From: a virus | Lineage: Duplodnaviria; Heunggongvirae; Uroviricota; Caudoviricetes | DNA length: 6,123 nucleotides | IMG/VR virus record: IMGVR_UViG_2537561689_000012 | Strand: one strand, 5' to 3' | Part shown: positions 1,334 through 1,634 of the stretch, in pieces | Layout of the letters: every line of letters begins with the position of its first letter | How positions within the stretch are numbered: position 1 is the first letter of the stretch | The notes under the pieces: generated by a model | Seen by the model: only the letters and a program-made list of their open reading frames with translations | Told to the model about the DNA's origin: nothing | Database searches by the model: none | Made by a program: the position numbers and the translations under genes

Positions 1334-1634
1334 ATGACAAAAACAGTATCAACCAGTAAAAAACCCCGTAAACAAGCATTCGCCTGAATTTCGCAGTGAA
1401 GCCCTGAAGCTTGCTGAACGCATCGGTGTTACTGCCGCAGCCCGTGAACTCAGCCTGTATGAATCACAACTCTACAACTGGCGCAGTAAACAGCAAAATC
1501 AGCAGACGTCTTCTGAACGTGAACTGGAGATGTCTACCGAGATTGCACGTCTCAAACGCCAGCTGGCAGAACGGGATGAAGAGCTGGCTATCCTCCAAAA
1601 GGCCGCGACATACTTCGCGAAGCGCCTGAAATGA
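1334..1634 (+). pseudogene. insE: IS3 orfA (InsE-like HTH transposase subunit) disrupted by an apparent +1 frameshift near codon 14
   Basis: ATG 1334 with SD AGAGGTG upstream opens a frame that stops at TGA 1385-1387 after 17 codons (MTKTVSTSKKPRKQAFA). The conserved OrfA body (HSPEFRSEALKLAERIGVTAAARELSLYESQLYNWRSKQQ...AKRLK) continues in another frame from 1377 to stop 1632-1634 and has no in-frame ATG until close to its end. This is consistent with one extra G around 1376 relative to the intact arrangement. Confidence 0.55.

Follow-up and report, generated by a model that had tools for sequence, protein, structure and literature searches.

The window analysed here, the whole 6,123-nt stretch of DNA, carries a copy of the insertion sequence IS3 whose orfA frame closes soon after its start codon. 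Has this copy lost its transposase gene by mutation, is its reading frame restored by some form of recoding, or does the base responsible belong to the assembled sequence and not to the organism?

The element occupies positions 1269-2527 on the plus strand and measures 1259 bp between its termini, versus 1258 bp for the IS3 of Escherichia coli K-12 MG1655. The latter served as the reference (positions 201-1458 of locus L001) and is annotated as 'IS3-like element IS3 family transposase, programmed frameshift'. In a global alignment, all 1258 positions of K-12 IS3 are identical in the window copy, and the sole difference is a 1-bp insertion, an A. The preliminary description had proposed a single-base insertion on the strength of an expected length of 1258 bp; K-12 IS3 has the expected length, and the alignment to a reference that it called for shows one inserted base, which the reference does not have. 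The left terminal inverted repeat (1269-1307, plus strand) starts with 5'-TG and is about 39 bp long and imperfect, with 28 of the 39 positions matching the right repeat (2489-2527, plus strand), which ends with CA-3'. The terminal sequences, TGATCTTACCC... and ...GGGTAGGATCA, are the same as those of K-12 IS3. In a megablast search of 5,426 complete E. coli genomes, 4,070 records match the window IS3 at 99% identity or more, and the top full-length matches all measure 1258 bp, versus 1259 bp in the window. The window copy also shares with K-12 IS3 the A AAA G motif and ATGA overlap of its two genes, the DDE (rve) domain of orfB and the 3-bp target duplication, but it differs by the extra A after IS3 position 105, which puts orfA out of frame past codon 14. 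By every sequence criterion tested, namely near-identity to the reference, TG/CA inverted repeats, a 3-bp duplication and the orfA/orfB architecture, the element is IS3 itself (IS3 family, IS3 group).

On either side of the element lies the trinucleotide GAC (1266-1268 on the left, 2528-2530 on the right), a 3-bp target-site duplication. A 400-base query for the empty site was built by joining the flanks after removal of IS3 and one GAC. In at least 24 listed genomes, its positions 91-400, the prophage part that spans the joint, match as one uninterrupted stretch at 100% identity. Strain ES6 matches all 400 bases, IS100 end included, and the empty site is also carried by three of the loci that we retrieved (L166, L167 and L170). 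Given these contiguous sites with a single GAC, the duplication is genuine. Thus, the inverted repeats and duplication are intact, as first described: the ends are those of K-12 IS3, and the site without the element exists elsewhere.

The insertion target is a Rac/Qin-like defective prophage that codes for a DUF977 protein, a DNA-binding protein, YdaT, Cro, a LexA-family repressor, ydfA and ydfB. On the minus strand are found the genes for DUF977 (2599-3021), a 356-aa DNA-binding or replisome-organiser-like protein (3062-4132), a YdaT-family protein (4204-4629) and Cro (4626-4841), followed on the plus strand by that of the LexA-family/S24 repressor (about 4891-5607). This segment, from 2599 to 5607, represents the immunity and replication region of the prophage and is 100% identical to that of the sister ETEC genomes. 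On the other side of IS3 is an IS100 element of the IS21 family (window positions 1-1158, with istB at 310-1092); its right end, near position 1158, is approximately 110 bp away.

What distinguishes the window copy is an A at position 1374/1375 (plus strand), where AA replaces the single A of canonical IS3, changing CAG to CAAG. Which of the two As is the extra one is not distinguishable. At this point, the alignment pairs AAAC-AGCATTCG in the reference with AAACAAGCATTCG in the window, the reference string being CAGCATTCG. The preliminary description had instead placed an extra G near 1376, expecting the reference to read CAACATTCG. K-12 IS3 does not read so, and G1376 is the normal G of the CAG codon for Gln14. 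The sequence at this point is AAACAGCATTCG in K-12 IS3 and in all the orthologous copies; the alignment thus rules out that model and leaves an inserted G virtually no chance.

The consequences of the additional A for the reading frames are direct. The orfA ATG at 1334, with a Shine-Dalgarno-like GAGGTG six bases upstream (1323-1328, plus strand), opens a frame of 17 codons, MTKTVSTSKKPRKQAFA*, that ends at the TGA at 1385-1387, the proper frame being lost past codon 14. The truncated frame thus spans 1334-1387 on the plus strand, stop codon included. The remainder of OrfA, HSPEFRSEALKLAERIG...AKRLK*, continues in the +1 frame relative to this ATG from 1377 to 1634 on the plus strand. It contains the helix-turn-helix (HTH) and leucine-zipper regions and matches Pfam HTH_Tnp_1 (E = 9e-10). 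Translation hence bears out both the early stop at 1385 and the displacement of the HTH body to another frame up to 1634, as originally noted. As the sequence stands, orfA does not run uninterrupted from its ATG to the frameshift site, as it would in an autonomous copy.

The downstream part of the element is unaffected. The A AAA G motif at 1597-1601 (plus strand), in the orfA/orfB overlap, is unchanged and identical to that of K-12 IS3; from the established IS3 literature, we take it to be the motif for programmed -1 frameshifting. RefSeq likewise annotates the orthologous IS3 coding sequence as 'programmed frameshift'. The orfB gene (1631-2497, plus strand) is intact. Its ATG overlaps the TGA of orfA in an ATGA (1631-1634), and it codes for a 288-aa protein with the DDE/rve catalytic domain, with Pfam matches to rve (E = 5e-28), rve_2 and HTH_21.

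We then asked which other genomes carry the insertion. Its left junction, or the window in full, is present at 99.8-99.9% identity in seven complete ETEC genomes (504237, ETEC-2265, TW10722, LR883006, 120899, 103605 and 204446). An eighth genome, that of strain 602354 (L006), has the same locus with an IS66 element nested in IS3, and it too is devoid of the extra A. Six copies from ETEC genomes and an NCTC assembly that share the junction (L003, L004, L005, L163, L164 and L165) were checked. Their junctions, GAC duplication and prophage context are identical to those of the window, but all six measure 1258 bp and do not have the extra A; furthermore, the NCTC copy (UGCI01000003) has no adjacent IS100. 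Three of them (L003 to L005) are annotated in RefSeq as an intact programmed-frameshift transposase, WP_085947771.1. Since copies with the same junctions are free of the extra A, it arose after transposition and is private to the source of the window.

Comparison of the window with its 6,120-base orthologue in 504237 (CP025862) and TW10722 (CP035841) revealed only five differences over 6.1 kb. Two are transitions in the istB gene of IS100, at 486 and 709, and the other three are insertions of an A, one in IS3 orfA (1374) and two in ydfA (5970 and 5977). The latter two each extend a run of four As to five (5970-5974 and 5977-5981, plus strand). They are 7 bp apart and 4.6 kb from the IS3 insertion, and they frameshift the 51-codon ydfA/DUF1391 gene (5880-6037). 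Among 3,222 records of complete E. coli genomes, none matches the ydfA string with both additional As exactly over its full length, the best match being at 97.2% identity (69/71).

All five differences are located in multi-copy sequence. In the sister genomes, IS100 istB is present at 6-9 places per chromosome, IS3 at 6 and the ydfA segment at 2-3, and from 2528 to 5969, where approximately 3.4 kb of prophage DNA is single-copy, there is not a single difference. As about 42% of the window is multi-copy, the probability that all differences would fall in that part by chance is approximately 1-3%.

Regarding the IS100 substitutions, the base at 486 is a synonymous G that matches no copy checked, and that at 709 is an A, which yields Ile instead of Val relative to the copy at the same locus in the sister strains. 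The 709A allele is carried by other IS100 copies of those strains, both chromosomal and plasmid-borne (L172, L173), an indication of gene conversion between IS100 copies or of cross-talk among them in the assembly. Cross-talk between repeat copies, whether biological or in the assembly, is thus plausible for the substitution at 709, which is not the case for the extra A in IS3. A donor IS3 copy with that A was found in no genome searched, and an origin by gene conversion was therefore rejected.

The search for the extra A in other IS3 copies was extended to larger collections. A 61-base query with the insertion at its centre matched 13,066 IS3 places in 4,666 records of the 5,426 complete E. 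coli genomes, but never exactly, the best identity being 98.4% (60/61). Similarly, the mutant 39-mer gave no match in GTDB representative genomes or in metagenome contigs, whereas the wild-type 38-mer, used as a positive control, gave 28 matches in the former and at least 120 in the latter. The extra A is also absent from the 171 loci that we fetched. Other length variants do exist: the fetched public contigs contain 68 complete IS3 copies, of which 8 depart from the canonical length. A metagenome contig (L123) holds such a copy, 1259 bp long owing to a single additional A at IS3 position 89, which falls at the A6 run of orfA or beside it. Thus, variants of orfA that differ by a single A in its N-terminal part recur in public assemblies, be they real or erroneous. 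In addition, 156 blocks of the protein collection list a 34-aa C-terminal fragment of OrfA as a gene of its own, and the copies concerned are broken IS3 elements unrelated to that of the window. Of the other proteins of the window that were looked up, the 39-aa ydfA fragment and a 72-aa off-frame ORF have no entry, the 356-aa DNA-binding protein occurs in the sister genomes only, and the IstB allele occurs in seven contigs, in none of them at the locus of the window.

From these observations, we infer that the extra A is probably a residual indel error of sequencing, consensus building or polishing in a multi-copy repeat. A canonical IS3 would have inserted into the Rac/Qin-like defective prophage and generated the GAC duplication. 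The base at 1374/1375 would most likely be absent from the organism, a single-base insertion error in a repeat, and the two additional As in the multi-copy ydfA segment would represent the same kind of error. Several observations point this way: the A is the only difference from K-12 IS3, copies at the same junction do not have it, it is private to the window, and all differences from the sister strains are in repeats. The variant is missing both from the orthologous copies and from all the other repeat copies searched, and it occurs together with two more single-base indels, located in A4 runs of ydfA, that likewise break a conserved gene. Close relatives within E. coli differ by many more substitutions than indels. 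Three insertions of the same base in the same direction, against two substitutions, are therefore odd for such relatives and count in favour of an error.

The Polypolish report (PMC8812927) states that long-read bacterial assemblies typically keep homopolymer-length errors and that these persist in repeats, where short-read polishing is unreliable. The insertions in the window resemble the errors described there (PMC8812927) in that they are single-base length changes, two of them in A4 homopolymers, occur in multi-copy sequence only and disrupt genes whose counterparts in near-identical genomes are intact. The IS3 change departs from that description, as it takes one A to two and involves no long homopolymer.

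This last point argues against an error: going from CAG to CAAG is not the classic mistake in a long homopolymer. Furthermore, three indels are a small sample, and real inactivating indels are common in IS copies, as the length variants above indicate, including the one with an A added at position 89. A mismatch-repair-deficient lineage would also generate both transitions and 1-bp indels in A/T runs.

Alternatively, the extra A might be a real, very recent and private mutation that has turned this IS3 copy into a non-autonomous element, an explanation that deserves serious attention and that we consider less likely than an error. If so, translation from the ATG at 1334 would yield only the 17-codon product, and the copy would supply neither OrfA nor OrfAB. 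Directly visible in the sequence are the frameshift and the absence of an alternative start before the ATG at 1530; the inverted repeats and duplication are intact, and the orthologous copies without the extra A place the change after the insertion. Broken OrfA proteins are also found elsewhere, as illustrated by the C-terminal fragment called in 156 blocks, and IS3 copies of unusual length are common (8/68). In the IS3 family, OrfA and OrfAB share an N-terminal HTH that binds the ends of the element in a sequence-specific manner, as described for OrfAB of the related element IS911 (PMC2909936), and the corresponding region is what would be lost here.

A real insertion would have consequences beyond orfA itself. 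With its intact inverted repeats, the copy would be movable only by OrfAB supplied from other IS3 copies, for which the approximately six IS3 places per sister genome could be the source. Nevertheless, as IS3-family transposases act preferentially in cis, such mobilisation in trans would be inefficient. In IS3, translation of OrfB is coupled to termination of orfA at the ATGA overlap, and OrfB synthesis would drop as well.

In these respects, the window copy would resemble decayed, non-autonomous IS copies, or IS pseudogenes, which likewise have intact ends and a broken transposase gene and can be mobilised only in trans. However, such copies usually harbour several substitutions or deletions, whereas this one is otherwise identical to the active consensus, so that any decay would be extremely recent. 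Two more private A insertions, 7 bp apart, occur in the same 6 kb, all the differences lie in repeats while the single-copy DNA shows none, and the variant is present in no other genome or metagenome searched, all of which speaks against a mutation.

The preliminary description held that the copy arrived by transposition and mutated afterwards, and that it is probably transposition-defective. The order of events stands, since the copies at the same junction measure 1258 bp and the extra A is later than the insertion, but a true mutation is not the most likely source of that base. In the same way, a real extra base would indeed deprive OrfA and OrfAB alike of the N-terminal HTH, but a sequencing error is the more likely explanation.

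Could a real extra A be tolerated because the frame is restored? One might envisage the loss of an A by slippage on the A6 run at 1358-1363 (plus strand), or a +1 ribosomal shift before the TGA at 1385, either of which would bring the HTH back into frame and yield a down-tuned but functional IS3. The A6 run, in codons 9-10 of orfA and 11 nt upstream of the insertion, is speculatively the only conceivable slippage site able to restore the frame; removing one of its As would give MTKTVSTSKNPVNKHSPEFR..., which is a possibility of the sequence only. Nevertheless, none of the other copies, about 13,000 in number, has the variant, which is thus not a conserved recoding device, the GCC-TGA sequence offers the P-site tRNA no +1 re-pairing, and no stimulatory element is evident. 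An A6 run is also too short for appreciable slippage in E. coli. Recoding is therefore highly improbable. The same holds for the more specific proposal that the extra A is real and the copy not dead because transcriptional or translational slippage on the A6 run restores the OrfA frame, with an N-terminus MTKTVSTSKNPVNKHSPEF..., to which we give hardly any weight. Were it true, the transposase output of this copy would depend on a second, upstream recoding event.

An alternative start codon does not offer a way out either. In the frame of the OrfA body, there is no ATG, GTG or TTG before the ATG at 1530, only the non-canonical codons CTG and ATC. As this first candidate lies beyond the HTH, an alternative start cannot rescue the DNA-binding domain.

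Nothing about the finding is new in kind, whether it is an artefact or a trivial indel that is private to this sequence and pseudogenises a well-known element. If the base were real, it would simply make one more non-autonomous IS3 copy, and one broken copy among several intact ones has no obvious consequence for biology. The value of the observation is in quality control: a 6-kb window harbours three gene-breaking insertions of an A that are absent from every comparable public sequence. With three such private insertions, frameshifts in the repeats of this assembly, be they IS elements or prophage paralogues, should be called pseudogenes only with read support.

The surroundings of the element show additional rearrangements. 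In the NCTC assembly (L163) and in CP091404 (L169), the left junction of IS3 is present with no IS100 called beside it, and no exact match to the right-junction probe was obtained in CP091404. Strain ES6 (hit H116) has IS100 at the same place and no IS3. The order of insertion is thus not simple: it implies two independent IS100 insertions at this point or the loss of one of the elements by recombination. In strain 602354 (L006, CP025847), where the IS3 copy is split by an IS66-family element, a second IS100 is found in the neighbouring DUF977 gene. The edge of the prophage at the IS3 locus accumulates insertion sequences.

Lastly, a repeat search of positions 1200-2600 reported a sole inverted repeat, a perfect 13-nt pair inside IS3 (TGAACTCAGCCTG at 1445-1457 and CAGGCTGAGTTCA at 1658-1670) with its arms 200 nt apart. 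It brackets the orfA/orfB overlap and the frameshift site and is canonical in every IS3, hence not specific to the window copy. It may have arisen by chance.
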